Origin: Candidatus Bathyarchaeota archaeon
GTDB taxonomy: Archaea > Thermoproteota > Bathyarchaeia > Bathyarchaeales > Bathycorpusculaceae
Direction of reading: 5' to 3'
NCBI GenBank assembly: GCA_963720565.1
Contig: CAVRFW010000005.1
Location: 64,001 to 128,000 of the forward strand
DNA length: 64,000 bases
Shown here one piece after another: positions 1 through 21,746 of the stretch (position 1 is the first letter of the stretch; each line of letters starts with the position of its first letter). Both the position numbers and the translations under genes were made by a program. The notes beneath the pieces are model-generated. The model did not search any database, was not told the DNA's origin, and saw only the letters and a list, made by a program, of their open reading frames with translations.

Positions 1-20
1 ATTGTTGTAGGCATAAAAGG

Positions 21-1331
21 TTGACTGCAGAGCGAATTTCTTGTATCGTTCGCGACTCTGCAGGTAAAACAGAATTGCAGTATACAACAGGTTCAGAACC
101 CTCGGCTCGAAGGATGTTTGTTCCATCTTTGACAGTGGCTTTTTTCTCAACCATGATTATGGAAACCATAACCAGCATCTTCTTACTGGATGTTACAGCA
201 TCTTTCTTTGGGACTACAAATCCTGTTTCAATAGCGACAACAGGTCAGTTGGTCACTCTCTCAGGTATTGTCTCCATCTTCTTCGGAGTGCTGCTAAGTG
301 TTCTAACGGTCAAGTATGATCATAAGAAACTGCTGCTAGGTGGCGTTCTAGGAATCACATTAGGAACTGTAGGCTGTTTCTTAGCGCCTAATTTCATGTA
401 TCTTCAGGTCTTTTATTCTATGGAGGGAATTGGCACAATAATAGTCAACACAATGGCGTTCGCATTGATCGGTGAATTCTTAGTCTTGAACAAGAGGCCG
501 AAGGCTACTGGATGGGTAATTGCAGGAGCATCAATTGCAGGCATTGCCTCTGCCATTGTGGTTAATTTCTTCTTCTCAGGTGTGGAAGGTTGGCGTTCTT
601 TTCTGCTGTGGTTCGCATTGCCAGTCTCCTTGATTGCTTTGGCTGCTACATTCTTTGGTGTTCCCTCGGCTCCCCAAAAACCGAGTGTGACTACTGGAGA
701 GAGATCTTACTTAAGCAGTTTTAAACAGGTTTTTCTGCAGAAATCGGGTGCTGCCTGCCTGGCTGGCAACTTATTGAGACAAACAGCGGTTGGGTATGTG
801 GTTATCTATTCGGCAACCTTTTTCAGGACGCAGTTTGGGCTGTCCGTTAGCGACGCTGCATTATTCGTATTGGGCATAACTACAGTTTTCACGATAGGTT
901 CCGTCATAGGGGGGCATTTGGTGAACAGAATTGGACGCAAACGTCAACTAGTAGCGGTTTTAATCATAGCTGCTCCCTTTCTGTTAGTCGTGCCCTTTAT
1001 GCCGATTCTGTGGATCGCTGTTGCTCTGCATTACGTGTTCTATTTCATCTTCAGCCTGAGCAATTCTCCTAACATCAGTTTGACTCTTGAACAGGCACCT
1101 GAATCTCGAGGAACGATGATGTCTATGAGCACTATCTTCATAACCATTGGATTCCTCGTGGCAGCTGGTGTGGGCGGAGCTGCCCTTGTCCTGGCAGGCT
1201 GGACAGGAATGATTCTCGTCTTCGTTGCATTGGAACTCATCTCAGCTGCCATCTTCTCCTTCTTAACCAAAGACCCATGCAGAACACAATCAAAAAGATG
1301 GCTCCAGTCGGGAAACCACGCGCGCGTTTAA
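21..1331 (+). CDS. MFS transporter
   Basis: About 12 hydrophobic segments; MFS-like loop motif 'GHLVNRIGRK'; start uncertain (TTG 21 or ATG 114). Confidence 0.85.
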   Translation: MTAERISCIVRDSAGKTELQYTTGSEPSARRMFVPSLTVAFFSTMIMETITSIFLLDVTASFFGTTNPVSIATTGQLVTLSGIVSIFFGVLLSVLTVKYDHKKLLLGGVLGITLGTVGCFLAPNFMYLQVFYSMEGIGTIIVNTMAFALIGEFLVLNKRPKATGWVIAGASIAGIASAIVVNFFFSGVEGWRSFLLWFALPVSLIALAATFFGVPSAPQKPSVTTGERSYLSSFKQVFLQKSGAACLAGNLLRQTAVGYVVIYSATFFRTQFGLSVSDAALFVLGITTVFTIGSVIGGHLVNRIGRKRQLVAVLIIAAPFLLVVPFMPILWIAVALHYVFYFIFSLSNSPNISLTLEQAPESRGTMMSMSTIFITIGFLVAAGVGGAALVLAGWTGMILVFVALELISAAIFSFLTKDPCRTQSKRWLQSGNHARV

Positions 1332-1335
1332 AAAA

Positions 1336-1414
1336 TGGCGGGCCCGCTGGGATTTGAACCCAGGACCTCCGGCTCCGCAGGCCGGTGTCATAATCCGTAC
1401 TAGACGACGAGCCC
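1336..1414 (-). tRNA. tRNA-Arg(GCG), CCA encoded
   Basis: Reverse complement GGGCTCG...CCGGC-CTGCGGA-GCCGG...GGGTTCAAATCCC...CGGGCCC-G-CCA folds as a cloverleaf. Confidence 0.95.
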
Positions 1415-1418
1415 CCAT
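1394..1418. repeat. att-like direct repeat copy 1 (tRNA-Arg 5' end/D-arm)
   Basis: tccgtactagacgacgagcccccat matches 13121-13145 at 22/25, with a 12-nt identical core. Confidence 0.75.
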
Positions 1419-1433
1419 GGATGGACTATGGTA

Positions 1434-1863
1434 CTAACTTCCTAAATATGAAGTTTTTAGTTTTCGGAACAGTTTTGCATCGTCGATTTCGGTGACGTAT
1501 TGGAATCCGGCTTCTATTAGCTGTGTGGCTTCCTCAATTGTCTTTGCTGCTTTGCAGATGTATTCTTCGTTTTGCGGTAGCGCAAGCAATTGAGTATAGC
1601 GCAGGGTCGTTTTTAGGTTTCTGTGCCCGAGGAGTTTTTGGACGTACAGGATGTCTTTGGTTTTGGCGTATTCTGTGGTTGCTTTCCAGTGTCGAAGAAT
1701 GTGGAAGTGGATTTGAGCAGCCTGGGGTTTTGGAGTTTGAATGCCGTTCGTTTCCTCCGTTTTCTAAATGTCCTTTCCACGTTTGTGATCGAGTTGTAAT
1801 TCCAAAGTTTGTCTGATTGGCGCGGTTGTGCTGCGAGCATTTTCATCATACGCTAATTGCTCT
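1434..1863 (-). pseudogene. Tyrosine recombinase/integrase, C-terminal remnant
   Basis: Manual translation: ...RKRTAFKLQNPRLLK/(frameshift ~1712)IHFHILRHWKATTEYAKTKDILYVQKLLGHRNLKTTLRYTQL...*; HxxRH, LLGH and catalytic Tyr present, N-terminal half absent. Confidence 0.88.
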
Positions 1864-2073
1864 GCGCGCGCCTATAGGAACGTAAAGAAGCCAGCCTGGG
1901 CTGCGAGCTTTAGCTCAACTGTTCTCATAAGACTTAGCTTATGAAGTCAGAATAGACATGGCGTCTATGATGATATCACGTCAGTATGAAGGGATTTCGG
2001 TTAGGTTCTGTTTTCCCAAGATGATTTGACATTAGATTGCATTCTGAGGCGCCACACAAGAAAATAGCACGCG

Positions 2074-2166
2074 CTATTTTTTGACCTTCTTGTGTGCTGC
2101 ATAGCTTCTTAGATGATACCACAACAGCTTGTCATCTTCAGCTATTTCCCTTTTTTCTTTCACCAT
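2074..2166 (-). CDS. Putative 30-aa small protein (MVKEKREIAEDDKLLWYHLRSYAAHKKVKK)
   Basis: ATG-to-TAG ORF; stop abuts a CGCG motif; no recognisable family. Confidence 0.3.
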   Translation of the reverse strand: MVKEKREIAEDDKLLWYHLRSYAAHKKVKK

Positions 2167-2292
2167 TATTTACGACCAAGTGTCTTTCAACACAAGCGAG
2201 ATAGAAATGGAAAAATTGTAGATCGCGCGCGTAGGGTTTCAACACGATAAGAGGCCGCGGTTACTTATCCAGGGTCATTTTTGCTTTTGAAG

Positions 2293-2701
2293 TTATTCGC
2301 TTTTTGCCTGCTTTGTATCGTGAAGTGTATGATGCTGAGTCGGGGGTTTTATTTCGTCTTTGTTTGCCCCCTTCTCTAGAAGCTCCCGAATACGTTTTAA
2401 CTCAGCCAAAATTTGAAGATCAACATTTTCTGAAGCTGATGACGGTCTTCTCTGACGGTACTTCTCGGGGATATTCTCTTCGGGGGCGGTCTTCTGTTCT
2501 TGGCGGTCTATTCTTAACCCAGCACTCTGCGCAGTAGACAGGGCGATCTCCTGTTGGCTGGAATGGAACTTCACATTCCTTACCGCAGTCAGCGCAAACG
2601 CTTTTATGCATCTCTCTGGAGCTGCGATCGAAACCTTGCCTACCTCTGGGACCGTGGGAACGATCAGAACTTCGCCTCACTTTATAACCCATTTTGTTCA
2701 C
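2293..2701 (-). CDS. CxxC-x17-CxxC domain protein (probable frameshift ~2455 joining two ORFs)
   Basis: CADC-x17-CAEC with 'EVPFQPTGDRPVYC' and RG-rich flanks; overlapping frame gives a helical tail 'LQILAELKRIRELLE'. Confidence 0.8.
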
Positions 2702-2780
2702 TCCTTTTTTCTTAGGTACACCTAGAAGCTAGCTATCCTTTAAGACTTTGTTAAAACGCGCGCTATTAACGTATGAAGCC

Positions 2781-3341
2781 TTATTCGTAGAAAATGAGGT
2801 TTTGCTCCTCCAACATTACGTGAAGCTTACGCACTGAATCATAAACGTCCTGTTCCTTCTTCGCCCCAGTACAAACAAGGCTCCCGCTCGCGAACACCAG
2901 TATAACCACCTTAGGCTCAGTCATCCGGTAAATCAAACCTGGAAACTGTTCCGGTTCATACATGCAGCTTCCAAGCACAGTCACAGCCTTCTCCAAATCA
3001 ACATTTCCACCCAGACTTGCGGAAGCAACAATGTTCACGACCTCGAAGTCCGGCTTGCCGAGGACTATTATTCCACATTTCTTCAGTTCCTTGACAACTT
3101 TCATAACCGCTCCTCGCGCTTCTTTCCCTGACTTCGCGCCAGTACAAACCATCTTTCCAGTGCTAAAAATTAAAATACCCGTTTTAGGCCTCTTCAACCT
3201 GAAAACTAGCCCAGGAAACTGTTCAGGGCGATATTCCACGCCGGGGTATCCTTTCACAACAGCGTTCAAGTCAATTTTCTGGTTCAGACTTGAACAGGCA
3301 ACAACGTTCTGAATGCTTATTACGGCTTCCGTCTTCGGCAT
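2781..3341 (-). CDS. tbp: TATA-box-binding protein
   Basis: Two repeats YRPEQFPGLVFR / YEPEQFPGLIYR, NVVA/NIVA, GKMVCTGAK. Confidence 0.97.
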   Translation of the reverse strand: MPKTEAVISIQNVVACSSLNQKIDLNAVVKGYPGVEYRPEQFPGLVFRLKRPKTGILIFSTGKMVCTGAKSGKEARGAVMKVVKELKKCGIIVLGKPDFEVVNIVASASLGGNVDLEKAVTVLGSCMYEPEQFPGLIYRMTEPKVVILVFASGSLVCTGAKKEQDVYDSVRKLHVMLEEQNLIFYE

Positions 3342-3482
3342 TTGACACCAGCCTTATAGTGTAGGAGATGCTTAAATAGCCTCTATCAGCGTGTTTGGAA
3401 AATGGAAAGGACTTAATGCGCGCGCTTAAATCTATTGAGAAAGAAGCTCTATTTAGGCAGATTTTGACAATTTACCCATGAA

Positions 3483-3677
3483 TTAGCGCACTTTTCGGTA
3501 TCGTTCTTTCTTGAACTGCAGAGTGAAACTGTGTTTTCCCTGCCTTGAGTAGTCTCTGAACTTGGTTTTGCATTTGTCACATATGTAGGCTTTAACGGTA
3601 AACTGACTGAAATGCCATTTTTTGTCGGGTTTAACAATTTCAGTCTGACAGTTCGGACATTTTGTCACAGCAATCAA
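3483..3677 (-). CDS. Small zinc-ribbon protein, Cren7-like chromatin protein candidate
   Basis: CPNC...KPDKKW...VKAYICDKCKTKFR, basic, 64 aa. Confidence 0.6.
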   Translation of the reverse strand: MIAVTKCPNCQTEIVKPDKKWHFSQFTVKAYICDKCKTKFRDYSRQGKHSFTLQFKKERYRKVR

Positions 3678-3836
3678 GATTTGATTACGTCTTTTTTCAA
3701 TTTAAGATTTTGTGGTGCTAGGGGGCGAAGAGCGCGATTGATCGTCCGTCAGGAACCTGAAGCAATTTGATAGAAATTGCGGCAGCAATATTAGGAGCAA
3801 GAGGTTGTTAATGAATAGACGTGAGGAGGGAATTAT

Positions 3837-5492
3837 GTGGCTTATTTAACGCAAACTCAAAGTGGTCAACCTGTGCTTATTTTGAAGGAGGGGACCTCTC
3901 GAAGCAGAGGGAAAGAGGCCCAAAGAAACAATATTATGGCAGCTCGAGTGATAGGGGAAGTTTTGAAGACAACACTTGGGCCGCGAGGCATGGACAAGAT
4001 GCTCGTTGACAGTTTAGGCGACATAACAATAACAAACGATGGGGCAGCAATTCTAAAGGAAATAGATGTAGAGCATCCAGCGGCGAAAATGATGGTAGAA
4101 ATCGCCAAAACTCAGGATGACATGGTTGGTGATGGAACAACAACAGCCGTGGTTTTGGCTAGCGAATTTCTCAAGAAAGCAGAAGAACTGTTGGACCAGA
4201 ACATTCACCCAACCATACTTGTGAGTGGATACCGCAAAGCAGCCCAGAAAGCCATCGAAATCATAGAGAAGAACGCGGTGCCCATCGACGTCGAAGATCG
4301 AAAAATGATGATGAAAGTTGCTTTAACGTCCATGGGGAGCAAAGCCGTGGGCAGCGCTAAAGAGCGCTTTGCGGAAATAGCCATAGACGCCGTCAAGCAA
4401 ATCGCCGAGAAACGCGGAGACAAGATGATTGCAGACATAGACAATATTCAGCTTGTAAAGAAAACCGGTAAGAGTGTTCTCGAGTCCCAGCTAATTAGTG
4501 GAATAATCATTGACAAAGAAGTTGTCCATCCAGGGATGCCCAAGAAAAAGGAGAACTCGAAAATTGCACTCGTAAATTCTGCATTGGAGATTGAGAAAAC
4601 CGAGATGAGCGCAGAAATTCGTATACGTGATCCGAACCAGATGAAAGCGTTCCTAGACCAAGAGGACAGCATGCTCAAAGACATGGTAAACAAGATCAAA
4701 GCCTCCGGAGCAGACATCGTCTTCTGCCAGAAAGGCATAGACGATATGGTTCAACACTACCTATCGCAAGAGGGCATAATGGCTGCTAGACGAATCAAGG
4801 AGTCAGATATGGAAAAGCTCGCGAGAGCAACTGGTGGAAGAGTAACCTCTAACTTGGACGATTTGAAAGCCGAAGACTTGGGCTTTGCCGGTTTAGTGGA
4901 AGAGCGCAAGATCAGCGAAGACAAAATGATCTTCGTTGAAAAATGCAAAGATCCACATTCGGTGGCCATACTCATACGAGCAGGGCTTGAAAGAATGGTG
5001 GACGAAGCCGAAAGAGCAATAATCGACGCGCTGTCAGTAGTCTCAGACGTCACAGAAAACAATAAAATAGTCGCTGGTGGTGGAGCAGTAGAAATCGAAG
5101 TAGCAAAAGAACTGCGCAGATACGCTAACAAAGTCGGAGGCAGGGAACAACTCGCTGTAGAAGCATTTGCAGACGCAATGGAAATAATACCGAGAGCACT
5201 CACAGAAAACGCGGGATTCCAGCCAATAGACGTGCTAATCGATCTGAGAACAGCACACGATAAAGAAGACGGTAAATACAAAGGCTTAAACGTATTCACT
5301 GGAAAAGTCCAGAACAGTCTCGAAAACGGGGTTGTCGAACCACTCGTTGTTAAAACACAAGCTATAAAATCGGCAGTCGAATCCGCAACGATGATACTGC
5401 GAATAGACGACGTAATAACATCCAAAGCACCCAAAGGCGGACCAAGAGGTCCAGGTGGCGGAATGGGCGGCGGCCCCGAAGGGGAAGAATAG
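3837..5492 (+). CDS. ths: Thermosome (group II chaperonin) subunit
   Basis: [26 protein letters not shown], Gly-rich tail. Confidence 0.97.
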
Positions 5493-5660
5493 ACACCCTA
5501 ATTCCTTTATTGTAATAGCAACGTATACTGCTCTGAGGTTAGAGCACTGTGAGAGACGCAGAAGAAAAATATAGCATCTGGTAACAACCCGGAGAAAACT
5601 GAATTTTCTAAATAACAGAGTCAATTCTCGTGGTTGTTAACACGTTCTCTAACACTGTGG

Positions 5661-7301
5661 TTACATACCGCCGTAACCACCCCCTGGCATTCCGCCAGGA
5701 GGCATAGGCGGAGCTTTCATCTTGCCAGAGGCGATGACGTCATCAACCCTCAGTATCATTGTGGTGGCTTCAGTAGCGGATTTGATTGTCTGTTTCTTAA
5801 CAGCCAAGGGCTCGTAAACTTCGAGTTCTCTCATGTCTCTGATTTTGCCTTCTAAGACGTCAACGCCTGCCCATTTTTCGCCCTTCTCATGGCGGCTCCT
5901 AAGCTCTAACAGAAGATCTATGGGATCAAGACCTGCATTTTCACCCAACGTCAACGGCACAATTTCCATAGCCTCGCCGAAACTCCGAACAGCAAGTTGC
6001 TCCCTGCCCGGTAGAGTTTCAGCATAACCCCTAAGTGCTCTAGCCACTTCCATTTCTGGGGCTCCCCCTCCCGCAACAATTTTGGGCACTTGAACAACAT
6101 CGCGGACTACACATAACGCGTCATGAACCGATCGTTCAGCTTCTTCAAGGAAGCGCTTGTCTGCACCTCGTATTAGAATAGCAACAGACCGCGGGTTCTT
6201 GCATCCTTCAATGAAAGTCAACTTATCATCGCCGATCTTCCTTTCCTCAACAACCTCTGCAAAGCCCAGGTCACTTCTTGAGAGCCCTTCTAAATTGGTA
6301 ACGGCCTTTCCGCCGGTTGCCATAGCTAGTTTCTTCACATCCGACTCCTTAACTCGTTGCACCGCCAAGACCCCCTTCCTAGCTAAGAAGTGCTGAACCA
6401 TATCGTCTATGCCTTTCTGGCAGAAAACGACATTAGCGCCTGAGGAAATTATCTTTTCAACCATTGCTTTGAGCATACCCTCCTCTTCCCGCAAGAAAGA
6501 CGACATCTGTTCTGGACGTTCAATGTTGATTTTAGTATCGAACTCGGTCTTCTTAATTTCAAGTGCACTTTCCAACAATGCTATCTTTGCCTTCTCGACC
6601 CGTTTGGGCATGCCTGAATGCACAACCTCCTTGTCAAGAACCACCCCTTCGATGAGCTCGGTTTCAGACATGGATTCACCGGGCTTCTTCTCCACCATAA
6701 TATCGTCCAAGTCTACCGTGAAGTCTTCTCCAACTTTTCTGGCCACATGCAAAACGGCTTCAACAGCTATTTTGGCAAGTTGCTCCTTGCTCTCAGACAC
6801 CAGCTTACTAGCCATAGAGGTAGCAGCAACCTTCTTCAAGAACTCCTTTCCTGTGGGGTTAATTGGAATCGCAATGTTTTCAAGGGTTTCAAGAGCTTTG
6901 TCAGCTGCTTTACTGTATCCTTCAACGATTACTGTGGGATGGACACCCTTGTTTAACAAGTCTTCAGCCTTTCCTAAGAGTTCACCGGCCAAAATGACTG
7001 ACGTTGTGGTTCCATCTCCCACTTCCGCATCTTGGGTCTTGGCGACTTCAACCATCATCTTAGCAGCAGGATGTTCAATATCCATCTTGTCAAGTATTGT
7101 TCTTCCATCACTCGTAATTATTACGTCACCGGAACTATCCACCAACATCTTATCCATTCCTTTGGGGCCTAACGCGCTTTTGACCGCTTCTGCTATCGTT
7201 TTTGCCGCCATAATGTTATTTCGTTGGACATCTCTCCCCGTAGATCTTTCCGACCCCTCCCTCATAATTAGAACAGGTACACCACCTGTTTGCGTAGACA
7301 A
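5661..7301 (-). CDS. ths: Thermosome (group II chaperonin) subunit, second paralog
   Basis: LGPKGMDKML, GDGTTTS, GGM tail; TTG start at 7301 behind GGAGG RBS. Confidence 0.97.
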   Translation of the reverse strand: MSTQTGGVPVLIMREGSERSTGRDVQRNNIMAAKTIAEAVKSALGPKGMDKMLVDSSGDVIITSDGRTILDKMDIEHPAAKMMVEVAKTQDAEVGDGTTTSVILAGELLGKAEDLLNKGVHPTVIVEGYSKAADKALETLENIAIPINPTGKEFLKKVAATSMASKLVSESKEQLAKIAVEAVLHVARKVGEDFTVDLDDIMVEKKPGESMSETELIEGVVLDKEVVHSGMPKRVEKAKIALLESALEIKKTEFDTKINIERPEQMSSFLREEEGMLKAMVEKIISSGANVVFCQKGIDDMVQHFLARKGVLAVQRVKESDVKKLAMATGGKAVTNLEGLSRSDLGFAEVVEERKIGDDKLTFIEGCKNPRSVAILIRGADKRFLEEAERSVHDALCVVRDVVQVPKIVAGGGAPEMEVARALRGYAETLPGREQLAVRSFGEAMEIVPLTLGENAGLDPIDLLLELRSRHEKGEKWAGVDVLEGKIRDMRELEVYEPLAVKKQTIKSATEATTMILRVDDVIASGKMKAPPMPPGGMPGGGYGGM

Positions 7302-7470
7302 ACAACTTCTCCTCCACGTACAATTACTATGACTTGACACAGTAAAAGGTTTCCCAAATTGCCTTTTTCATGACGTGGAAACCTAAGGAATCGTAACAAT
7401 CCAGTGAGAAACAAAAATATTGCATGAAAAAGTGAGTGAGCAAAAAATGTCACTATACCCACTGTATCAA

Positions 7471-8043
7471 CTATTTCACTGTTACTTTGTGCTTTTTAGG
7501 CGCGGGTGCAATCGTCTTCTTTGGGATGCAAACTTCAAGTAATCCGTCCCTGAATGTGGATTCGGCCTTCTCAGGGATTACTTCTTCTGGGAACGACAGC
7601 TGTTTGTAAACATGCGAGTAAGTGCGTTCTCTGACAACAAAGTTCTTCCCCTTGTCTTCCTTTTCAACATCTGTTTCAGCCGAGATTTCGATACCATCCT
7701 TCGTCAGCGCCACGTCGATCTTGTCTTTTGCTACGCCAGGCAGCTCAGCATGCACTACAAACATTTTTCCCTCATCAACCAAATCTACAGTTGCCTCACG
7801 GACCGGAACAACAGGCTCAGCCCTAATCCAATCCCACGGAAAAGCTATACTTTGAGGAAAAGCTATGCTTTCAATGAAATTTCTGCGAAAATTATCCATC
7901 AAATCGTCAAAGGTCGTCAGAACATGAACTGCAGGGATATGCTTAGCAGGAATATGTTTAGCAGGAAGATGTTTTATAGGTTTTACTGCGATTTCAGTTT
8001 TTGTGACCGCCTTCACCGGCGTCTTTTTTTCTTCTTTACTCAT
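7471..8043 (-). CDS. Hsp20/alpha-crystallin small heat-shock protein
   Basis: AELPGVAKDKI, RER, 'FRDGLLEVCIPK', C-terminal V-x-V motif; GAGGTGA RBS. Confidence 0.92.
   Translation of the reverse strand: MSKEEKKTPVKAVTKTEIAVKPIKHLPAKHIPAKHIPAVHVLTTFDDLMDNFRRNFIESIAFPQSIAFPWDWIRAEPVVPVREATVDLVDEGKMFVVHAELPGVAKDKIDVALTKDGIEISAETDVEKEDKGKNFVVRERTYSHVYKQLSFPEEVIPEKAESTFRDGLLEVCIPKKTIAPAPKKHKVTVK
7931..7975. repeat. 3 x 15-bp in-frame tandem repeat in Hsp20 (KHLPA-KHIPA-KHIPA)
   Basis: gcagggatatgctta / gcaggaatatgttta / gcaggaagatgtttt. Confidence 0.85.
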
Positions 8044-8261
8044 TTTTTTCACCTCAATTAATTTATTATTAGTATTCAGTCTTCCTTATTACGTCTGGAA
8101 AAGGAACTTTTTCAACGCCACATTCTGAAACGGGGGGACCTCAGCTATTAGCCCTCACGCGCTCATAGCCTTTAGGTGTTGAGGGCTGGCTGGCTTTCCC
8201 CTACTGCTTTTTCCCAAAGGGACTTAAAATGGAGTTATTTGGAGATAGCGGGGACGTGGGC

Positions 8262-8405
8262 TTACTCGTTTTTGGCAATCCATGTTTTTACTGCTTCTTC
8301 GACGGCTCGGGTTAAGTCGCCTTTTTTCCCGCTGAACCTCTCGATTGTTTTGAACCTGAGCTGTTTCTCCAGCTCGTCTGGAAGCTCCACGCATATACGA
8401 CCCAT
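8262..8405 (-). CDS. Ribbon-helix-helix (CopG/Arc-like) DNA-binding protein, 47 aa
   Basis: MGRICVELPDELEKQLRFKTIERFSGKKGDLTRAVEEAVKTWIAKNE; GGTGA RBS; below ORF-track cutoff. Confidence 0.7.
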   Translation of the reverse strand: MGRICVELPDELEKQLRFKTIERFSGKKGDLTRAVEEAVKTWIAKNE

Positions 8406-8778
8406 TTTTGTTCACCGATTTTTATTTTATCAAGTTTTTTGTGCACGTTTCGACGTGTCAGATGTTTTTCCAATAAGCGAATTGCCAGATACTAATTTTC
8501 ATGTTTGTTTTTGTAATCATTTTTATTCACCTTATTCGCTTATCCACATAATACATAATGTGCATACTTGCTTATAAGGGTATTGATTTATATGTTTACG
8601 CGTGGCGCGTTTATTGGTTTCCCTACGAGTTTAAGGAACTGTTAGAAGAGATTTACCGGAATTATATGGAAAGGAAATAGGTAGCTTGCTTACTCTTAAG
8701 ATTTTCAATCAAAAAGGACTAAATACTAAAGTTGATAACAGCAGTTAACACAGGCAACCGGAAACAAGTGAGAAAAGA

Positions 8779-9015
8779 TTGACGAAAGAATGCAAATTTT
8801 GCGGATGCGAGTTAACTGAGGAAGAAATCGAAAAATACGGTTGTCTGTCAACCGAGGAAGAGGGCATAAAAATTGACACCCCTATATGCCCCGTTTGCGC
8901 TCTGACCAAAACCAAATTGGGCAAGGCAGTACCTGAAGAGGAACGCGAGAAATTCCTAGAAGAGTGGATACGCAGAAAGGTACCACATGAACCACGCGCT
9001 CCAGCCAGTGAGTAA
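8779..9015 (+). CDS. Hypothetical zinc-binding protein
   Basis: CKFC...CPVC. Confidence 0.55.
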   Translation: MTKECKFCGCELTEEEIEKYGCLSTEEEGIKIDTPICPVCALTKTKLGKAVPEEEREKFLEEWIRRKVPHEPRAPASE

Positions 9016-9034
9016 AATTTTTAAAGCGTGCGCG

Positions 9035-9240
9035 ACATAGATAGTCGATTATTTCTTCAACGAACAAGACATAGGTAACAGTTAATCGCAAGTTTGAAGG
9101 GGGACTTTGACAAATGGTTCACTGTTTATGCGGCAAAGACGCTAACGTGTTCGAGAGCGGCAAGACGGAATGTATTGATTGCTACTTGAAGCGGAAAAAA
9201 AGGCTGTAAACGCGGATAGCTGTCCCGAAATCAGTCGCTT
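9035..9240 (+). repeat. ~205-bp module homologous to 23928-24128
   Basis: Visually alignable throughout, e.g. gttaatcgcaagtttga, acgctaacgtgttcga, ctgtaaacgcg. Confidence 0.85.
9114..9209 (+). CDS. 31-aa zinc-finger micro-protein, paralog 1
   Basis: MVHCLCGKDANVFESGKTECIDCYLKRKKRL; conserved with paralogs at 12532 and 24004. Confidence 0.8.
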   Translation: MVHCLCGKDANVFESGKTECIDCYLKRKKRL

Positions 9241-9338
9241 GCGCGCGCGATTCTGTTCAGCTATTATGTTTTTGCGTTTTTCAATGGGACATAAGTGTTA
9301 AACGGCAAACTAACTTAATGCACATTGGAGGGAATAAT

Positions 9339-9791
9339 GTGTATGAAGAGTTCATTGATAAACTGAAAAAGCGAAAAGAAGAGCGTCAAGAAGACTACGA
9401 TCGACTCAAAGGTATGATAGCAGGATTTCGTTTAACCAATTTCAACCAAACAGAAGAGAGCTTAGTTTTAATTGTTGAGTACGCAATGAACAGTTTCAAA
9501 AATCATCAGGATTCTATTGACGCTCTCAAGGAAGCAACAATCTACTCATTTCAAAGACTTGAAACCTTAGAAAAAGAAATGAAACAGTTGAGAGCCACCT
9601 ATGGCATAAAAGGTGTCGCGCACGCTGAAGAGGCAGGAGGCAAAACGAATGAGGGTGCGGGACAATTGAACAGTGGAAAGAAGAATACAGGAGGGGCAAT
9701 CAAAATTAAGACCAAAACAAAAAACAAACCGAAAAACGAAACAAAAAGCAAAACAAAAAACAAAGGAAAAAAGACGTGGAAGCAGCAGTAA
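9339..9791 (+). CDS. Hypothetical coiled-coil protein with Lys-rich tail
   Basis: ORF with GGAGG RBS before GTG; helical N-part, KTKTKNKPK tail. Confidence 0.55.
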   Translation: MYEEFIDKLKKRKEERQEDYDRLKGMIAGFRLTNFNQTEESLVLIVEYAMNSFKNHQDSIDALKEATIYSFQRLETLEKEMKQLRATYGIKGVAHAEEAGGKTNEGAGQLNSGKKNTGGAIKIKTKTKNKPKNETKSKTKNKGKKTWKQQ

Positions 9792-9830
9792 GAAGAATTA
9801 AAGAAAAATGAGCATAAAGAATAATTTCCT

Positions 9831-9950
9831 ATGACAATATTCTCTGAAGACCTGATAGACCAAATCAAAGAACTGCTTGAAAGAGTGGCAGACCCACACA
9901 TAGTTAAAACAAGAGTTAAGTTCTATTCTTTCAAGGAGTTCCTTCAATAA
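9831..9950 (+). CDS. Putative 39-aa protein (MTIFSEDLIDQIKELLERVADPHIV...)
   Basis: ATG-TAA ORF with amphipathic helix; no family recognised. Confidence 0.3.
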   Translation: MTIFSEDLIDQIKELLERVADPHIVKTRVKFYSFKEFLQ

Positions 9951-9985
9951 CAAGTTTATGTTGCCGTCTGCTCTCTAATTGTAGA

Positions 9986-10396
9986 GTGGTGATAAATGTG
10001 AACGCAAAGCAATTCTTCAGAATCGAAGTCAGCACAAGTTGGGGACATTTGATTAGGGAAAGGAAGACGCTGACTAAAGACGAAGAGAAAGTAAGAGAAG
10101 CAAGAAAGGCTTATCGTGATGGAATCAAAAAAGCATGGGACATTTACACCGAAGACAACATGATAGTAAAGGAAGCAAAGAAGACTCTTGACTCAGCAAT
10201 AGACGAAGCATACAAATCCTGCTTGCCCGAACATGGAGAGAGAATGGCACAAACAGAATATGAACAGGCAACCAAACTTTATTTCAAAACTTTATACAAA
10301 GTTCACCGCAAGTTTGCGGATACGATCGGACCAATTTGGGGTGTTTTCATGAAAGACATGGAGACTTCTCCAAGACTAACCAAGAAAAATACTTAG
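9986..10396 (+). CDS. Hypothetical helical protein
   Basis: 136-aa ORF, protein-like composition; start uncertain. Confidence 0.55.
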   Translation: MVINVNAKQFFRIEVSTSWGHLIRERKTLTKDEEKVREARKAYRDGIKKAWDIYTEDNMIVKEAKKTLDSAIDEAYKSCLPEHGERMAQTEYEQATKLYFKTLYKVHRKFADTIGPIWGVFMKDMETSPRLTKKNT

Positions 10397-10651
10397 AAGC
10401 TAAACCAAAACCCTATTCATTCTCCACAGACTCATTGTGCAAGACCATGCGACTTTCAATGGGTATCCGAAAATATCACTCTAAACTATATAGTGGGGGA
10501 AAACCTTCCCCTCAAAATAATTTCGGGAAAAAAGGATTCGCGAATGACATCTCCACCTAGCTTGGAGTTCATATCCCAGCGCCCCTATTGATTGTCAGTT
10601 GCTTTCCGAGATGACAAGTCTAAAGTATGAAATTGCCCGATAGATGTTCTT

Positions 10652-11425
10652 ATGAAAGAAAGAACCAAAACATTACTGATTCTGGTTGTGCTTCTCATAT
10701 GCTCGTTTCTCCCTGTCTTTACGGCATCGCCTTTTCCCCAACAAGACAGCTCACTTGTCATCAAAGAAGTCCTAATGAAGACCTCAGTCGCATACCTGTG
10801 GCTCAGCCCGATCGTACATGTCATTACTGTGGTACTGTTTATCGTTCTTTACCTTTATGGATCCCGAGTAGGCAGAATTGCCGACGTCTTTTTCGCCATT
10901 CTGTTTTTGTTCATTGCCTTCAGCAATCATATCGCTGTCACTGACACTTATGGACTTGCGGTGGTAACAGGAAACCTGGTTCCAATACTAATCGTAGGGC
11001 TCCTCTGGATTTGGGAGGTTTACAGACCTCAGAACAATTATGCTTTCGAGAGGCTTCCAGCGTGGAGATACTGGGTCTTGCCCTTTGCCTTCTTGGCTTT
11101 CTGGTCTCCAATAAACGCACAGCTAAACCCTGATTTCAATCCGTTGTTGCTTCTAAACTCTTCCTTCGGTGTAATGTACTGTCCCACAACACCAGTCATA
11201 ATCGCCCTACTTACTCTACTCTACCCAAGAGTCAACACAATTGTCCTCAGAGCAACCAGTTTTGTGGGATTAATAATGGGTCTGTTCAATGTCATGTCGT
11301 ATTTCATAATGCCAGGATATACCCTGTGGAATCTGGTTCTTCACACGCCACTCATATTTATTTCCCTGTACGGCTTGCTGATCCCAACCTTAGCAAAGAC
11401 TAACCTCTCGCGGCACGCTCGATAA
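10652..11425 (+). CDS. Hypothetical membrane protein
   Basis: Signal-like N-terminus and ~7 TM segments. Confidence 0.75.
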   Translation: MKERTKTLLILVVLLICSFLPVFTASPFPQQDSSLVIKEVLMKTSVAYLWLSPIVHVITVVLFIVLYLYGSRVGRIADVFFAILFLFIAFSNHIAVTDTYGLAVVTGNLVPILIVGLLWIWEVYRPQNNYAFERLPAWRYWVLPFAFLAFWSPINAQLNPDFNPLLLLNSSFGVMYCPTTPVIIALLTLLYPRVNTIVLRATSFVGLIMGLFNVMSYFIMPGYTLWNLVLHTPLIFISLYGLLIPTLAKTNLSRHAR

Positions 11426-11437
11426 CAGAAAGGGCGG

Positions 11438-11913
11438 TCATTTGGGCAAATCATTAGACTGTGCGCTCGTCTTCTTCTTGTTGTATGAGTACTGATAGTA
11501 CCCGTAGGAACTCATCATGACAAAGAAAGCAATCACAAGCATGCTTCCGTAGAGTCGCGACGTCAGGTATCCGTACCAGTTTAGTCCTATGCTGCCAATG
11601 AAGAGAAGTAACAGGTAGATGATGAGACCTGGCGGCCAGCGTTTGGGGTGATGAAGGGGTTTCTTTCTAGTTATCAATCTGTACCAGAGGTCGTAGACCA
11701 AGTAGATGATTATTGGCAGTTCAGCTAGCAAGCGTCCAGAGTCGTTGCCAAAGAGTAAGTTCAATATCCAAAGCAAAGCAAAAGGAATCAGCTGGGCACT
11801 AAATGCGATTCTCAACTTGAGCTCAAACTTCGAGAGTTCACGAGCACGCAGAAGATACACAACAAACAAGAAGGCATAGAAGACCAGTGCGAAGAAAACT
11901 ACAAGGTTGTCTA
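11438..11913 (-). pseudogene. Membrane protein, 5'-truncated at a (CG)n run
   Basis: Hydrophobic frame (LDNLVVFFALVFYAFLFVVYLLR...) extends to the GCGCGCG run at 11914-11920 with no ATG before an upstream stop. Confidence 0.55.
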
Positions 11914-11989
11914 GCGCGCGGTCGTCATTGTGTGCAAGTTGGAGCTACGCCTATTAGTGAGTGTGTTAGTGTGTGTTGCGGTGATTGGA

Positions 11990-12406
11990 ATGAGGGCTGG
12001 TTTGCTCCTATGTAGATATGAGAATGCAGAGGATTATTCTGTTGGCAGGCGGTTTCGCTTTGCTGTTGTTGATTTGGACAAAGGTAAGAATTATCCATTG
12101 AATTTTGTTTGTATGTTGCCGACGAAAATAGAAGCTGCTGGTAAGTCGCAAAGTGTCTTTCTGCAGATATTTGGAGACAAGAGCGTGGAGCAGGCTAGGG
12201 TATTGTTGACTGGGGCTTTGGAGACCGAGAGTGATCCTGAGGTTAAAGCGGAGATTGAAAGAAGGTTGAAGCTGCTTGAAGTTAAACCAATCAGTTAAAT
12301 CGAATGTAGCGCTTGCAGAAAATTGTTTCAGCTTGGGCGAGTGAGAGGGTTTAAGCAGAAATTCTGTCAAGAGTGTGTGAAGGAAAAGTTCGGCAGTCGT
12401 GAATGA
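11990..12406 (+). pseudogene. Hypothetical protein with C-terminal zinc finger, interrupted by in-frame TAA at 12296-12298
   Basis: Same frame continues IECSACRKLF...KFCQECVKEKFGSRE*; GGTGA RBS. Confidence 0.7.
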
Positions 12407-12531
12407 GAAAACCCTCTAACGCGCCAGAAAGCACATAGTAAAATTGTGGCCAAACCCTTGAAGACTTGGCTTTCGACATATGACAACACACACAAGATGA
12501 TTTAAAATGAGGCATTCAAGAACGTCCTATT

Positions 12532-12627
12532 ATGAACGAGAAGTGTAGTTGTGGTTCTTTCCCGAATGTTTGGGAAAACGGAAAACGCGAATGTTCAGAT
12601 TGCTATTTGAAGCGAATTAAAGGGTAG
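12532..12627 (+). CDS. 31-aa zinc-finger micro-protein, paralog 2
   Basis: MNEKCSCGSFPNVWENGKRECSDCYLKRIKG. Confidence 0.75.
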   Translation: MNEKCSCGSFPNVWENGKRECSDCYLKRIKG

Positions 12628-12767
12628 AATCTGAAAAGGGTTGTTCGGGGATTCTGAACCGTTTCGAGTGTGTAAGAGAGTTTTGTAATCCGTGTTTTAG
12701 ATTGCGGTTTGTTTCGGCGTTGAAAAATCATTAATATCGGTTTTAGTCCAACCAGAGAGGCTTCGAG

Positions 12768-12875
12768 ATGGAATGGAGAGTTTTAAACGAAGAATTAGTT
12801 GACTTTCTATCGTGCAAAAGAAAAAGGCGACTCGAAGTCAGGAGCGTCAGGCTTTTGGAAAAGCTAAGGAAATAG
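12768..12875 (+). CDS. Putative 35-aa basic protein (MEWRVLNEELVDFLSCKRKRRLEVRSVRLLEKLRK)
   Basis: GAGG RBS, ATG-TAG; stop overlaps a GCGCGCG run. Confidence 0.4.
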   Translation: MEWRVLNEELVDFLSCKRKRRLEVRSVRLLEKLRK

Positions 12876-13120
12876 CGCGCGGTTACACGTTACCTAGAAA
12901 AACATCCTGTTGATGCGTCAGGTTTGATTCATGTCGGAATGATACGCCTTGAAGTTGAAGCATACAAACCATTCTCAAAAAGCACGCGTGAAGAAACTCG
13001 ATAAACCTAAAGAAACAACGTATAATCGCCAATTTTTGGATTTATGCCAGAAATGGGAAAAAAGGAGAAAAGGGCTGCGGAGAAAACATTATGCTGGCGA
13101 TATCACCCAAGAATGGTCGG

Positions 13121-13145
13121 TCCGTACTAGACTACAGGCCCCCAT
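13121..13145 (-). repeat. att-like direct repeat copy 2: orphan tRNA 5' fragment GGGCCTGTAGTCTAGTACGGA
   Basis: 22/25 identity to 1394-1418; no anticodon or T arm follows. Confidence 0.75.
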
Positions 13146-13266
13146 ACTTTGAGAAGAAATAACTTGTGCTAAAGGATTTAAGGCTTGTTTATTGCGCGCT
13201 TGATGAGGTTATCTGATTTGCCTTCAGTCATCAGAGGTAACTTGAAAGCATCTTTCTGGCAGCATG

Positions 13267-14424
13267 CTATGGAACATAGGCTGAGTTGTTCCAGAAAATG
13301 TATTTGCTGTAGGTGGCGTCTAATGCCAATCCATCATCATATATTATGTCGAGATTGTTCGGGTATTGATCCATCCAATAGTCTAAGCTCGTGCATATTT
13401 CAAGCGAAAACGCATCTGCTTCCCATAACCCCCAGATCCTATCAGTGGGTCCTCTGAGACCGTACCCGTAGTCTTTCGGAAGGACAAAAGCAACCCTATC
13501 ACTGCTTCTCATGCTTCGGTCAGGATTGGCTTCTATGTACCGCCAGAACCGCTTCAAAGCATCAAAGTGTTCCTGTTGGAGAGTGCCATCCGTGTAGTCT
13601 TCATTGCTGTCAAAGACCAAAACGTACTTCGCGCCGCTATCATACGCCATGACAAGGTTCTCGTAGAGATGCTCGCCCGACGAGAGGTATGGAGGTTCGG
13701 TGTATTTCCAAGTTATCATAACACCCCACTCCCTGTTTTGAATTGTGGCTGCTCCCCTGCAGGCAGCTACATTTAACCTTCTGCTATAGTTAAGCGCGAA
13801 TTCTGCGAAGACAACATCATAGCCTGCTCTATAATCGAACCAGTAAAGGGCATAATCAGATGTGAAAGCTTGAACGCCTTCAATCTCGGTCGCATTCGAA
13901 GTAGAGCTCTCCAGCATTTTTTCCAAGTGAGCAACGAACTGGATGCTCGCGTCCGTATAGTTGTCTGCTTCGCGGACGATTCTATATGTCCATAAGTCCA
14001 GGTTCTTCCCGCCGACCTCGTCAAAAACATACAAACCCAAAAAACGGTCGCCCCATTTCACTTTCGCGTTTTCTATCCATTGTCTCGAAGGCTGAGTGGG
14101 AGGATCATGATCATCTGTGAACACGATAAACGATAATCCTTTATCATAAACGTACTGACAAAGGTCAACGAGTTTTGTCTCATTAAAAGTTATGCCAGTG
14201 CTGCCTATAACGAACAGGTTCGTGTATGAACTGACCTCGTCAATCAAAGCCTTAATCTCGACGACGTCATCGTAAGCCGCATCGATTCCAACGTAAAAAT
14301 CTGTGGACCGGTTTGGTCTTGGCTTTTCAGAGGCTAAAAAGAAATTCGCCACGAGAAGAGAAACAATTAGCAAAGATGACAGAAGAAGCAGGAAGTATCT
14401 GGGTTTCATTTGCACCTTAAACAA
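13267..14424 (-). CDS. Secreted/membrane-anchored hypothetical protein
   Basis: N-terminal hydrophobic anchor, 385-aa globular domain with 'GLYVFDEVGG'. Confidence 0.75.
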   Translation of the reverse strand: MFKVQMKPRYFLLLLSSLLIVSLLVANFFLASEKPRPNRSTDFYVGIDAAYDDVVEIKALIDEVSSYTNLFVIGSTGITFNETKLVDLCQYVYDKGLSFIVFTDDHDPPTQPSRQWIENAKVKWGDRFLGLYVFDEVGGKNLDLWTYRIVREADNYTDASIQFVAHLEKMLESSTSNATEIEGVQAFTSDYALYWFDYRAGYDVVFAEFALNYSRRLNVAACRGAATIQNREWGVMITWKYTEPPYLSSGEHLYENLVMAYDSGAKYVLVFDSNEDYTDGTLQQEHFDALKRFWRYIEANPDRSMRSSDRVAFVLPKDYGYGLRGPTDRIWGLWEADAFSLEICTSLDYWMDQYPNNLDIIYDDGLALDATYSKYIFWNNSAYVP

Positions 14425-14527
14425 TAAGCAAGTCTAAAATAAGGATTTTCCACATTCCTCGTTTAATTCAAAGTACTATTAGTGCACTTTCGCCTTGGAG
14501 TGCCAGAGAAGTACTGAAGGTTTGTGG

Positions 14528-14704
14528 CTACTTGAGGTTTGTTCCGCAGTTGGGACATTTAAGGTAGTCTGTCTTAACTTCCTTAAGCAAATCAGCGCCA
14601 CAGTAAAAACATATGCAAACCTTGCATCTTGGACAGAAGTAGTTGGCGCTTTGGATGGTTTTGTTGCAGACTATGCAAGGTTTGCCCACACATTCATTCG
14701 ACAT
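14528..14704 (-). CDS. Small multi-Cys zinc-finger protein (58 aa)
   Basis: CIVC, CPRC, CFYC, CPNC. Confidence 0.7.
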   Translation of the reverse strand: MSNECVGKPCIVCNKTIQSANYFCPRCKVCICFYCGADLLKEVKTDYLKCPNCGTNLK

Positions 14705-14966
14705 TCTTGAATAGCTCGCTGATAGAAATGGCTTAACACAGCTAATAAGTCTTGAAGAGACAGCATACGCCACAGCGGCAGAAGCAGCGCGTCGCAACTA
14801 ACTACTTTCCTGAGAATTTTCGTCAAAAATAGGATACAGAGTTTCCGAATTTTTTAACTAAACTGCCTTTGCGCGGAAAAAATCCAATGAAGAGGAATAA
14901 TCCACAAACGTTAAATTCACAGCATTGGTAACTTTAACAAATTTCATTGCCAACAGAGCTGATACC

Positions 14967-16888
14967 ATGAAAGTAATCTCTAAAGAAGACTTCAAGGATT
15001 TTGTGAATGCGTTAATCAAAGATGATTCTAGGCACGTCATTGGGGTGAAAGCTCGGGGAAACAAATTCGCCTTCGGCACACTGGAGTCAGCGGATGAGCT
15101 TCGACTTGACTACGACGTTACGCTATTGCCTCCGAAGAAATACTTCTTTCCCCAACGTGAAACGCTTTTCACCTATGATCTTGCAGATGGTTTTTCAGCG
15201 AAAAACCCTGAAGACGCTAAACCCATGTTGATAATAGGTGTTCACCCTTATGACATTGTTGCCCTGCTTCACATGGATGAAATATTCAGGGATACAAAAT
15301 CTGATCCGTACTACTTCAAGAAAAGAGAGATCATCCATCATAATTGGTGTAAACATTCAGAAAATGTCCAAATGGAATTTCTCTTCCTTCATGGGCTGCA
15401 GCGTTATCGACTATGGTTATGACCTCATGCTTACTGATTTAGGCAATAGATACGGAATCAACGTTGGCTCTTCAAAAGGAGAAGCACTTCTACTGAAGTA
15501 CGCAAAAAACATCATGCCGGCGTTGGCACGTGATATCCAAATCGCAGGGCAGAAGAAACAAGAAGTATGGAAGATGGTCCAGCAGAAACTGGATTTTCCA
15601 GCTGAACTGATCCCAGAGTTGCTGGGAGCAAGCTACTCAAGAAGCGGATTCTGGGAGAGCCATTCCGAGAAATGCTTAGCTTGCGGATCTTGCGTGCTGG
15701 TTTGCCCAACGTGCTACTGCTTCGACGTGAAAGATAATCCAGATTTGACCTTGGAGCAGGGTGAAAGAATCAGGACTTGGGATGGTTGCCTGCTCGAAGA
15801 TTTCGCCAAAATAGCTTCAGGAGAAAATTTCCGTGCGACCAGACCAACCCGTTATCGCCACCGTTACTTCAAGAAGGGAAAATACCTGTTCGACAGGTTC
15901 GGCTTCGTCTCTTGCGTAGGATGCGGAAGATGCTCCTCGAACTGTCTTCCAGACATTGCAAACCCCGTTAACTTGTTCAACGACATGTACCATGAAAGCC
16001 AAAACAGCGGAATGCAAATGCCCTCTTCAGCCACCCAGCCAGACGTAAGCATCAGCACCGAAGGAAACATTGACTACGTACCCGAACTCGGAACCATAAT
16101 AAAGAAAGTGCCAATGACGGCCTACGAAACCTTGTTCGAGATTAGACTGGACGATGGTTCAGAGCTTGGACACAAACCAGGACAATTTGTTGAAGTTTCA
16201 GTCTTCGGCATTGGCGAAGCACCCATATCAATTTCATCGTCCCCAACAAAAAAGAAAACGTTTGAACTCTGTGTGCGGAAACTGGGAAACGTCACAACGA
16301 GAATGCATAATCTGAATGTTGGAGCCAAAGTTGGAATAAGAGGCCCGTTTGGCAACGGTTTCGACGTTGAATCCCTGAAAGGAAAAGACCTGCTATTCGT
16401 AGCAGGCGGTTTGGGGATAGCCCCACTAAGATCCCTGTTCAATTTTGTGTTAGACAGAAGAAAGGACTATGGACGTGTCACTCTTCTCTATGGCTGCAAA
16501 GAGCCAAAAGAAATGCTTTTCGGGGAAGAACTTGCCCTGCTCAGCTTCAAGAGATGATGTTGAATTCAAATCCACAGTAAACTGGTGCCCAGAAAACGAG
16601 TTGTGGTCAGGCAACATAGGCGTAATTACAACGCTCATTCCGCTAGTCGAATTTGACCCCGAAAAGACTACCGCGATACTGTGCGGTCCACCTGTAATGT
16701 ACAAATTCGTCATTGCAGAACTAAAGAACCGAAATGTGCCGGACGAGAACATCATCATGTCCCTCGAACGGAGAATGAAATGTGGTGTAGGCAAATGCGG
16801 GCACTGCCAAATCAACCAAATCTATGTCTGCAAGGATGGCCCCGTTTTCAACTATTCCAAGATTAAAGGCGTTCCGGAGGCGCTGTAA
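14967..16888 (+). CDS. NADP-coupled [NiFe]-hydrogenase/sulfhydrogenase beta (4Fe-4S) + gamma (FAD/NAD, 2Fe-2S) subunits, apparently fused; frameshifts ~15330 and ~16545
   Basis: CLACGSCVLVCPTC, CVGCGRCSSNC, RGPFGNGF, AGGLGIAPL, CGPP, MKCGVGKCGHC. Confidence 0.88.
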
Positions 16889-17625
16889 TGAAACCCAAAG
16901 TCGCATTCTTCGACTTCGCAGGCTGTGAGGGAGACCAACTTCAAGTAGCCAATCTAGAAGAAGAACTCCTGACTCTGCTGGGACAAGTTGAAGTCGTCAC
17001 CTTCAGAGAAGTCATGAAAGAGCACAACGACAACTATGAAATAGCTTTCATTGAAGGATCATGCACTCGACTGCAGGATGAAGATAGACTGAAACAGATC
17101 AGGAAGAACGCGAAAATCGTTGTCGCCATAGGCTCGTGTGCAGCTATTGGAGGCATTAATTCACTCAGAAACTACAAAGACCTAGAAGGCGTCAAGAAAA
17201 CCGTCTACGGAGAAAACGCAAAACTTTTCGATAGCTACGCAGCCAGACCGATAGACGCCATAATACCCGTAGACGCGTATGTTTATGGTTGCCCCATAGA
17301 CAGAGACGACTTTCTTCATGTAGTCAAATCGCTCTTGCTTGGAAAAAAACCTGAAACACCCACATACCCAGTCTGTGTTGAATGCAAGAAGAACGAAAAC
17401 ATATGCGCCTTTGAACGCGGCCAATTCTGTGTTGGACCAGTCACAAGGGCAGGCTGTAATTCCTGCTGCGTAAATGAAGGAACAATCTGTTGGGGCTGCC
17501 GAGGCTTTGTGGACAATCCAAACGAGAATGCCCACAAGGAAGTCTTGATAAAATACGGTCTCACAGTTGACGATGCAATAGGCAAGTTTAAGTTATACTT
17601 CGGTTGGCAGGAGGCAAAAAGATGA
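16888..17625 (+). CDS. [NiFe]-hydrogenase small (delta) subunit
   Basis: GCEGD, IEGS, GSCA, GCP, CVEC, CVGPVT, CWGCRG. Confidence 0.92.
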   Translation: MKPKVAFFDFAGCEGDQLQVANLEEELLTLLGQVEVVTFREVMKEHNDNYEIAFIEGSCTRLQDEDRLKQIRKNAKIVVAIGSCAAIGGINSLRNYKDLEGVKKTVYGENAKLFDSYAARPIDAIIPVDAYVYGCPIDRDDFLHVVKSLLLGKKPETPTYPVCVECKKNENICAFERGQFCVGPVTRAGCNSCCVNEGTICWGCRGFVDNPNENAHKEVLIKYGLTVDDAIGKFKLYFGWQEAKR

Positions 17626-18932: not shown

Positions 18933-19052
18933 GCCCAAGTTTCAAAACTCCTTTTCCAGAAAAGTTATCAGACTAAAACATACAATATAGTATCAGCTCC
19001 AATAAAGCTGGCATCTTCAGTACAAAAATCCAGATTTGAGAGGAAAACAGTA

Positions 19053-21725: not shown

Positions 21726-21746
21726 CCTCGTTCCATACGATTGAAC

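Follow-up and report, generated by a model that had tools for sequence, protein, structure and literature searches.

Alternating (GC)n runs in an accessory island of a Bathyarchaeota genome as probable filler DNA of a Ku-independent end-joining route

In a draft genome of Candidatus Bathyarchaeota archaeon (2.09 Mb, 45% GC, 89% complete; labelled G000 here), we examined short runs of strictly alternating G and C, written (GC)n or (CG)n, within a stretch of 64,000 nucleotides that we call the window (contig CAVRFW010000005.1, positions 64,001 to 128,000; C5:64001-128000 in our labelling), where they gather in an island of accessory genes at its left end. We find the runs where unrelated fragments are fused and where sequence has been deleted or replaced, and the corresponding unbroken sequence usually has no run. 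These runs are probably filler DNA, left when broken ends are joined independently of Ku: a primase-type enzyme would add (GC)n to DNA ends, and the resultant self-complementary tails would anneal with each other. A run of the GCGCGCGC type thus looks like a patch left by an undescribed repair route rather than a recombination site of gene cassettes. A preliminary description of the window had taken the runs either for junction scars or for the cores at which an integron-like process recombines, possibly with a link to the adjacent integrase family; the tests of density and breakpoints described below support the scars, and the integron-like cores are not supported.

The ten runs listed in that description (from 1319-1326 to 13194-13199, plus 26423-26429) were all found exactly where it had placed them, and those noted as shorter or interrupted, as far as 14787, can be seen as alternations of 4-5 nt. 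Between 1318 and 13199, there are eight runs of at least 7 nt against 0.55 expected (mean of 300 dinucleotide shuffles; maximum 3) and five of at least 8 nt against 0.13 (maximum 1). Runs of at least 7 nt number one at 13200-32000 (0.69 expected) and also one at 32001-64000 (2.14 expected); the latter is inside rpl3, and the rarity in the core half of the window had been correctly described. Over the whole window, the excess is diluted: namely, 16 matches to GCGCGCG were found against a mean of 4.4, and 16 was reached by one of 100 shuffles. In G000, GCGCGCGC is the most over-represented among the 8-mers seen at least 20 times (168 against 27.5 on both strands in an order-3 Markov model), and non-alternating 8-mers made only of G and C are at most 1.4-fold over expectation. 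Run lengths genome-wide agree with chance as far as 6 nt, above which there is a shoulder at 7-11 nt, and no comparable long-run shoulder was seen in G000 for the alternation of AT, AC, GT, AG or CT. Excluded from most counts, as probable contamination, was the final 3.8 kb of contig C9 (~70% GC, nine runs); this piece, from ~501500 to the end, lies beside an integrase remnant and a tRNA fragment and is probably a contamination or mis-join.

Based upon our own gene calls, in which 80% of the bases are coding, 140 of the 185 runs in G000 touch intergenic DNA, which comprises 20% of the bases. Intergenic runs of at least 7 nt amount to 44-46 per 100 kb where G002, a genome from the same genus, shares less than half of the neighbourhood and to 14 where it shares more; accessory DNA is about three times denser in runs than shared DNA, and the runs are not equally frequent in core intergenic DNA, as had been anticipated for junction scars. 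Inside genes, the density is 2-5 per 100 kb (2.3 in shared DNA). At the run flanks, only an A just 5' of the run is favoured on each strand (59% and 50%), which agrees with the earlier remark on the lack of a wider consensus; indeed, neither consensus nor extended symmetry nor hairpin arms were detected around the runs of G000 beyond that one base, and 19 of 370 flanks resemble any other flank. The intergenic enrichment in shared DNA as well (14 per 100 kb against 2.3 in genes) would suit a protein-binding or regulatory element, but the runs show no fixed distance to gene starts or stops and no orientation bias, with all four orientations occurring, and they destroy genes. The same runs are, moreover, present in other species and samples together with decayed forms, and we consider it scarcely credible that they represent either such an element or an artefact of assembly or library preparation.

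The end of a homologous stretch falls at a run about four times as often as chance would predict. Among the ends of repeats within G000, 17 of 462 were located within 6 nt of a run against 2.2 in the null, and for the intergenic repeat ends the count was 15 of 289 against 3.5 in a local intergenic null (maximum 10 of 1000). The ends of alignments between G000 and G002 were near a run in 12 of 482 (null, 3.4; maximum 10). Breakpoints are hence not random with respect to the runs, given that the homology ends exceed the matched intergenic null. We also compared the window with contigs from four public sequencing data sets (X1, X6, X7, and X9), in which joints with a short side are uncertain according to the warning of the tool; five of 14 joints, at four places, involve a run or CG filler, and the other nine have no run nearby.

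For the anatomy of such joints, 474 distinct runs over the DNA of all genomes compared were surveyed, and at 54 flanks a close homologue extends as far as the run. This homologue continues with none of the run bases at 23 of the 54 sides, with one at 13, two at six, three or four at four, and at least five at eight; the run is, in other words, absent from the partner or matched by at most 4 nt at 46 sides. One to four run bases were templated at 23 of these 46 sides, compared with 22% expected (p 4e-5), and two or more at 10. A one-sided case is an integrase gene of the genome G021, which is cut mid-frame at a run; eight intact homologues have no run there. Such one-sided cases might reflect a later deletion that reached an old run, and cases in which both sides of the joint can be compared therefore matter.

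Three such two-sided cases were found. First, an 802-bp deletion inside polB2 of G002 is sealed by GCGCGCG with four extra bases; both sides remain intact in G000 and in the other PolB2 proteins, and the left break falls within the conserved polymerase motif, which cannot encode the run. Second, nine bases, CTGTTTACT, in G097 correspond to CGCGCGCGC in G127 between collinear flanks (the comparison covers ~6 kb, over which the two are 93-94% alike), and G066 carries the form of G097, so that the run in G127 appears to be derived. Third, the X1 and X7 strains, which are from different studies, lack a 906-bp block of the window (10494-11399) and have its ends joined by CCCGCG; in the window, both ends of this block are free of runs, and X9 holds a gene across the right end. 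Larger replacements were also observed: 103 run-free bases of G097 are replaced by a 677-bp mosaic, which is composed of four pieces and contains five runs, and a 400-bp piece of G002 with a run at each end replaces ~2.2 kb of run-free sequence in G000, where the flanks are 74-87% alike. Runs are otherwise inherited and decaying, as exemplified by the run at 9241 shared with G002 and by forms such as CGCGTGC opposite to intact runs. Taken together, these observations rule out an assembly artefact and argue against a core required in both partners.

These junctions also bear on the idea that runs exist beforehand and are either fragile, through Z-DNA or restriction cutting at CGCG/GCGC, or favoured as microhomologies, so that breaks and joins gather there. 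Indeed, at least five run bases are shared with the partner at eight of the 54 junction sides, some pairs diverge exactly at a shared run, and archaeal microhomology-mediated end joining (MMEJ) is described to use GC-rich microhomology in the accessible text of PMC12281630. The source of the excess would nonetheless be left unexplained; CGCG and GCGC themselves are not in excess in G000, and no C5 methylase (PF00145) was found in any of five genomes. CGCG-directed cleavage and Z-DNA fragility, both of which the preliminary description had offered as alternatives, require a run before the break, and the two-sided cases contradict this at three junctions. Fragility or microhomology of pre-existing runs may act as a secondary effect but is highly improbable as the origin of the runs.

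If the runs are filler DNA, a break would first be trimmed, and a primase-type enzyme would then lengthen the 3' ends by alternating G and C, often from a terminal G, GC or CG as a seed and often after A. Because (GC)n tails are self-complementary, any two tailed ends could anneal in either orientation, and fill-in and ligation of the annealed tails would leave (GC)n of 6-11 bp. Capture and deletion, occurring again and again in a dispensable island integrated at a tRNA, would produce the appearance of modules alternating with runs, and the runs would afterwards be inherited, decay by point mutation and sometimes be reused by elements resembling insertion sequences (IS). The island would then resemble a cassette array because dispensable DNA has been broken and patched many times.

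The island itself is 11.75 kb, and 25 bp from the 5' end of tRNA-Arg(GCG) are repeated at its two borders, at 1394-1418 and 13121-13145 (both on the minus strand; 88% identical), the latter being its right border; a joint from 13090 to 1394 was found in X7. The tRNA gene (1336-1414, minus strand) is the likely integration site of the island and was the single match in an Rfam scan. G000 has two tRNA-Arg(GCG) genes, this one and C1:3964-4042, which are 95% identical and are each located less than 400 bases from a run. The run of 8 nt at 1319-1326 lies 10 nt past the tRNA 3' end and is within the final codons of a reading frame of the major facilitator superfamily, where the alignment with a paralogue ends at residue 422 of 436. 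The leftmost bases of the window (1-1068) are nearly uncovered in the four public data sets, and uncovered stretches were not counted as evidence of absence. At the other border, a 6-nt run (13194-13199) is immediately outside the island, and a 7-nt intergenic run lies far outside at 26423-26429.

Next to the tRNA is a remnant of a tyrosine integrase (1434-1852, minus strand), in which only the C-terminal part is left with a frameshift (PF00589, E 2.6e-8); PF00589 is a general profile and not specific to IntI, and the remnant belongs to a tRNA-linked family. As had been claimed, this gene breaks at a run: similarity to intact homologues begins at 1852, which is 12 nt from the 8-nt run at 1864-1871, and those homologues have 245-313 more residues upstream of the start of the remnant. 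The break of a membrane-protein gene (11438-11911, minus strand) has been borne out as well, given that the first five codons of all ten close homologues printed are missing exactly at the 7-nt run at 11914-11920, which stands in place of the gene start.

Other runs of the island separate its modules. The 8-nt run at 2224-2231 is the right end of a block (2057-2228/2234) that is swapped for 51-59 other bases in the strains of X1, X6, and X7, each with a joint there. A gene for a CxxC treble-clef zinc finger (2420-2701, minus strand; PF23477) is followed by a 7-nt run (2757-2763), at which the homology of the accessory TBP gene (2781-3341, minus strand) to three other TBP modules ends; the TBP gene also occurs in G002, G021, and G023. 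Between the TBP module and a zinc-ribbon module is an 8-nt run (3418-3425), and the homologues on both sides end within 5-7 nt of this run and do not have it. The zinc-ribbon gene had been labelled Cren7-like, a label for which only sub-threshold zinc-ribbon matches were obtained. A convergent pair of thermosome genes (3837-7340), common to G002 and G004, comes next; its homology begins at 3744, 8 nt from a 5-nt run at 3732. The Hsp20 gene and a small regulator (7435-8621, minus strand) have an 86% copy on contig C10 and end adjoining an interrupted run at 8599-8609.

The 9-nt run at 9241-9249 is inherited, since the same run is present in the 94%-identical segment of G002. Near this run had been described a duplicated module bounded by two runs; the copy is confirmed (9012-9220 and 23905-24110), but 21 nt lie between its end and the 9241 run, and the homologue in G002 continues uninterrupted through that run, which makes the boundary weak. 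For the remaining 7-nt run at 12875-12881, no homologue was found for comparison. Within the window, furthermore, five A-rich repeats with a 12-bp period (9698-9781) lie at the fused end of the open reading frame at 9318-9791, and a sulfhydrogenase-like subunit gene (14925-16557) is in two frames, split near 15240-15420. Metagenome contigs (L041-L044; 96-98% identical) span 3503-8891 with no rearrangement.

In sum, the cargo of the island includes the CxxC zinc finger, a third TBP, two thermosome genes, Hsp20 and membrane genes, and several of its modules are repeated elsewhere in G000 and are present also in G002, where they are differently ordered. The extra thermosome pair, Hsp20 and the third TBP move as accessory modules; G021 has four TBP matches. 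The different order in G002 could be expected if the runs served as the sites of crossover in a cassette system, integron-like or driven by the integrase, in which a tyrosine integrase recombines any two runs. A length of 7-9 nt suits the overlap of a tyrosine recombinase, and the same idea gains from a subfamily of integrases (310-340 aa) in which, in the six copies examined, a conserved tail extends to a run located 70-135 nt past the stop, from a weak correlation between the counts of the run motif and of integrases (rho 0.41 in 61 genomes) and from one weak run-to-run joint (3423 to 11925) in X1. Short tyrosine integrases (L030, L033, L058, L082; L057, L074; L029) have an N-terminal frame that overlaps the integration site; their sites are tRNAs, a transcription-factor-S-like gene, an oxidoreductase gene and what we take, from its motifs, to be an RNase P RNA gene, and several share the conserved tail of 70-135 nt.

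Nonetheless, no binding sites flank the runs, and runs arise where neither parent had one, namely in a simple deletion and in a replacement in place. At the junction sides surveyed, a core shared by both partners is not seen: the intact partner lacks the run at 23 of the 54 and matches it by 1-4 nt at 23 more. Genes, including those of integrases, are cut mid-frame at runs. Members of the integrase family, which was found in 57 of the 61 genomes, are located at tRNAs and other fixed sites without a run, and integrase-rich genomes are often run-free: eight genomes with 8-13 integrase matches have 0-7 motifs, and five with 1-3 matches have 11-31. A cassette system using the runs as its cores is, therefore, very unlikely.

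We also noticed mobile elements that end at runs, and the runs might then be target sites or excision footprints of IS or miniature inverted-repeat transposable elements (MITEs), where an IS-driven deletion is followed by loss of the element. A 485-bp helix-turn-helix (HTH) module with inverted ends carries a run at either tip, both in G000 and, with different flanks, twice in G021, and a DDE_Tnp_1/DUF772 element of G002 as well as a DUF772 remnant of G000 ends at a run. Only ~7 of the 185 runs in G000, however, adjoin such a tip, and none does so in the island, where a regular-expression match at 1319 was spurious. DUF772, the one IS family that was surveyed, is present in five of 23 run-rich and 14 of 51 run-poor genomes and in none of the 12 genomes of the genus g74 described below. 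Transposable elements are thus an unlikely source of the runs. MITE-like elements that hold a single HTH gene and have inverted ends, each tip with a GC run, were located at C8:7615-8099 and C12:91132-91611 of G000 and at L028:141-625, L024:1355-1837, and L155:18594-18890.

The trait is distributed unevenly. Among 61 relatives, the count of WGCGCGCGCW ranges from 0 to 116 and is patchy within the order. In 301 genomes of the phylum, a one-sided excess over the reversed phase recurs in the genus g74 of another class, eight of whose 12 genomes have 20-135 motifs against 1-7 in the reversed phase; in some other genomes of the phylum, both phases are raised together. The commonest form in g74 is AGCGCGCGCT, which is clustered in variable regions.

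Several enzymes were examined as the writer of the runs, and in all the following comparisons of run-rich with run-poor genomes, related genomes are not independent of each other. Ku, which is found in one of 23 run-rich genomes (G000 itself) and 10 of 51 run-poor ones, ATP-dependent ligases and PolY were rejected, given that their distribution does not track the runs; in the Ku-LigD operon of G000 (C3:159600-162586), the ligase gene is frameshifted close to its end. Neither a reverse transcriptase nor the PolX thumb was found in five genomes. A PolB2-type polymerase of 760-790 aa is present in 11 of 16 genomes with at least ten motifs and in seven of 45 others (first 61 genomes) but is not a requirement: none was found among the PF00136 matches of the 12 g74 genomes, and two motif-free genomes have it intact. 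The PolB2 gene of G000 (C6:74986-77290) is split by a frameshift, and in G002, where polB2 carries the deletion, the gene for the LigD polymerase appears to be frameshifted.

The primase PriS (PF01896) is encoded in 49 of 49 genomes, run-rich or not. In addition, an extra PriS-like primase of ~280 aa gave strong matches to our own profile in seven of 24 run-rich genomes and in none of 56 run-poor ones; the carriers are the six richest of the twelve g74 genomes and G043, with a possible remnant in G182, and the nearest solved structures are archaeal PriS (E 9e-11). This gene often occurs as one intact copy together with several fragments in a genome (G066, G097, G127, G142, G150, and G177). A second small primase of G000 (C5:40625-41410) was set aside as it is mostly in run-poor genomes and only 25-33% like the g74 family, and the idea of a cut at AG^CT plus an insert, which fitted three of ~9 junctions inspected by eye, was dropped. 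As the writer, the accessory PriS-like primase, present or decayed in some run-rich lineages, is a possible candidate, and the host primase, PriSL, a slightly less likely one; the accessory enzyme may have been lost from G000 or may be one of several writers. It is conceivable, if rather doubtful, that a dedicated mobile PriS-like primase writes a self-complementary (GC)n linker on broken ends and thereby makes all ends compatible, and that its carriers shuffle foreign fragments with neither homology nor a recombinase until the enzyme decays and the scars remain, as in G000.

Several points weigh against the reading of the runs as filler added by a primase-type enzyme. More than 95% of homology ends are not at a long run, and among the collinear indels of G000/G002 listed blind to the motif, only four of 29 have a run of at least 5 nt (3.1% in random 40-nt windows); most of these indels are old because the two genomes are only ~76% alike. 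The 13 collinear rows in the junction survey include one clear new run, and the others are conserved, decayed or chance coding runs. Clean two-sided cases are only three; at one of them, the CCCGCG joint, the short side has just 22 bases, and five of the six bases could be copies of a nearby inverted match. The direction of each event, furthermore, is read from sequence comparison. As for the enzyme, the extra PriS-like primase was not found in G000 (89% complete), G021 (116 motifs) or G050 (68 motifs), and six of its seven carriers are from one genus. In Saccharolobus, the products of PriSL are, according to the accessible text of PMC12019639 and PMC3333859, mostly 1-2-bp indels, including C insertions in a G/C context, whereas strictly alternating filler of 6-11 bp joins unrelated fragments here; 1-2-bp events in the present genomes would be indistinguishable from ordinary mutation. 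Polymerases are known to make short repeats untemplated, but CG repeats are rare except with Taq, and rare among the untemplated products of the B-family enzymes tested, in the part of PMC13061963 available to us.

In most archaea, which have no Ku, non-homologous joining is largely an open question, and the scars would provide a readable signature, a count for each genome and two candidate enzymes. If the proposal is true, a linker for any ends would account for mosaic accessory islands assembled from gene fragments in the absence of integrons, and an enzyme writing a defined palindromic tail could serve as a cloning tool. Alternating GC filler at prokaryotic junctions was not found described in the literature, although most subscription papers and all supplements were outside our coverage; this archaeal group is not mentioned in the accessible parts of a survey of Z-DNA (10.64898/2025.12.30.697008) and of a survey of mobile primases (PMC5862659).

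Among known systems, the closest in character is PriSL of Saccharolobus, for which the accessible text (PMC12019639, PMC3333859) describes terminal transfer and annealing of ends via 2-4 GC pairs in the repair of CRISPR-made breaks. The present joints are like this MMEJ/PADT route in that they are archaeal and Ku-independent and have short G/C microhomology, with PriS encoded, but the runs have an uneven distribution, in contrast to the universal PriS. The MMEJ of Haloferax volcanii likewise heals deletions at short GC-rich matches; that route, however, uses existing homology, and the word "insertion" is absent from the main text of the paper as accessible (PMC12281630). Joint bases supplied by neither end are a feature in common with the N-addition or filler of non-homologous end joining by Ku/LigD, and yet the filler here alternates G and C, and Ku is almost absent from run-rich genomes. 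Fillers made by LigD Pol, TdT, Pol mu, and Pol theta are random or flank-copied extra bases.

Integron arrays and clusters of attC sites lacking an integron integrase (CALINs) place unrelated small genes in a row with a short palindrome between them and an integrase gene nearby, and the island indeed has small unrelated genes, palindromic runs between them and an integrase remnant nearby; unlike integrons, it shows no attC structure, no apparent attI and no common orientation, contains gene fragments, and does not have the run in both partners. HIP1 of cyanobacteria is an over-represented GC-rich 8-bp palindrome linked to rearrangement, but is common in genes and tied to a methylase, whereas the runs avoid genes, vary in length and mark joints, in genomes where PF00145 was not found (0 of 5). 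The (GC)n joints are hence real and unusual and are probably an undescribed variant of end joining, which the tests made here place outside the families of integrons, Ku/LigD, and HIP1.

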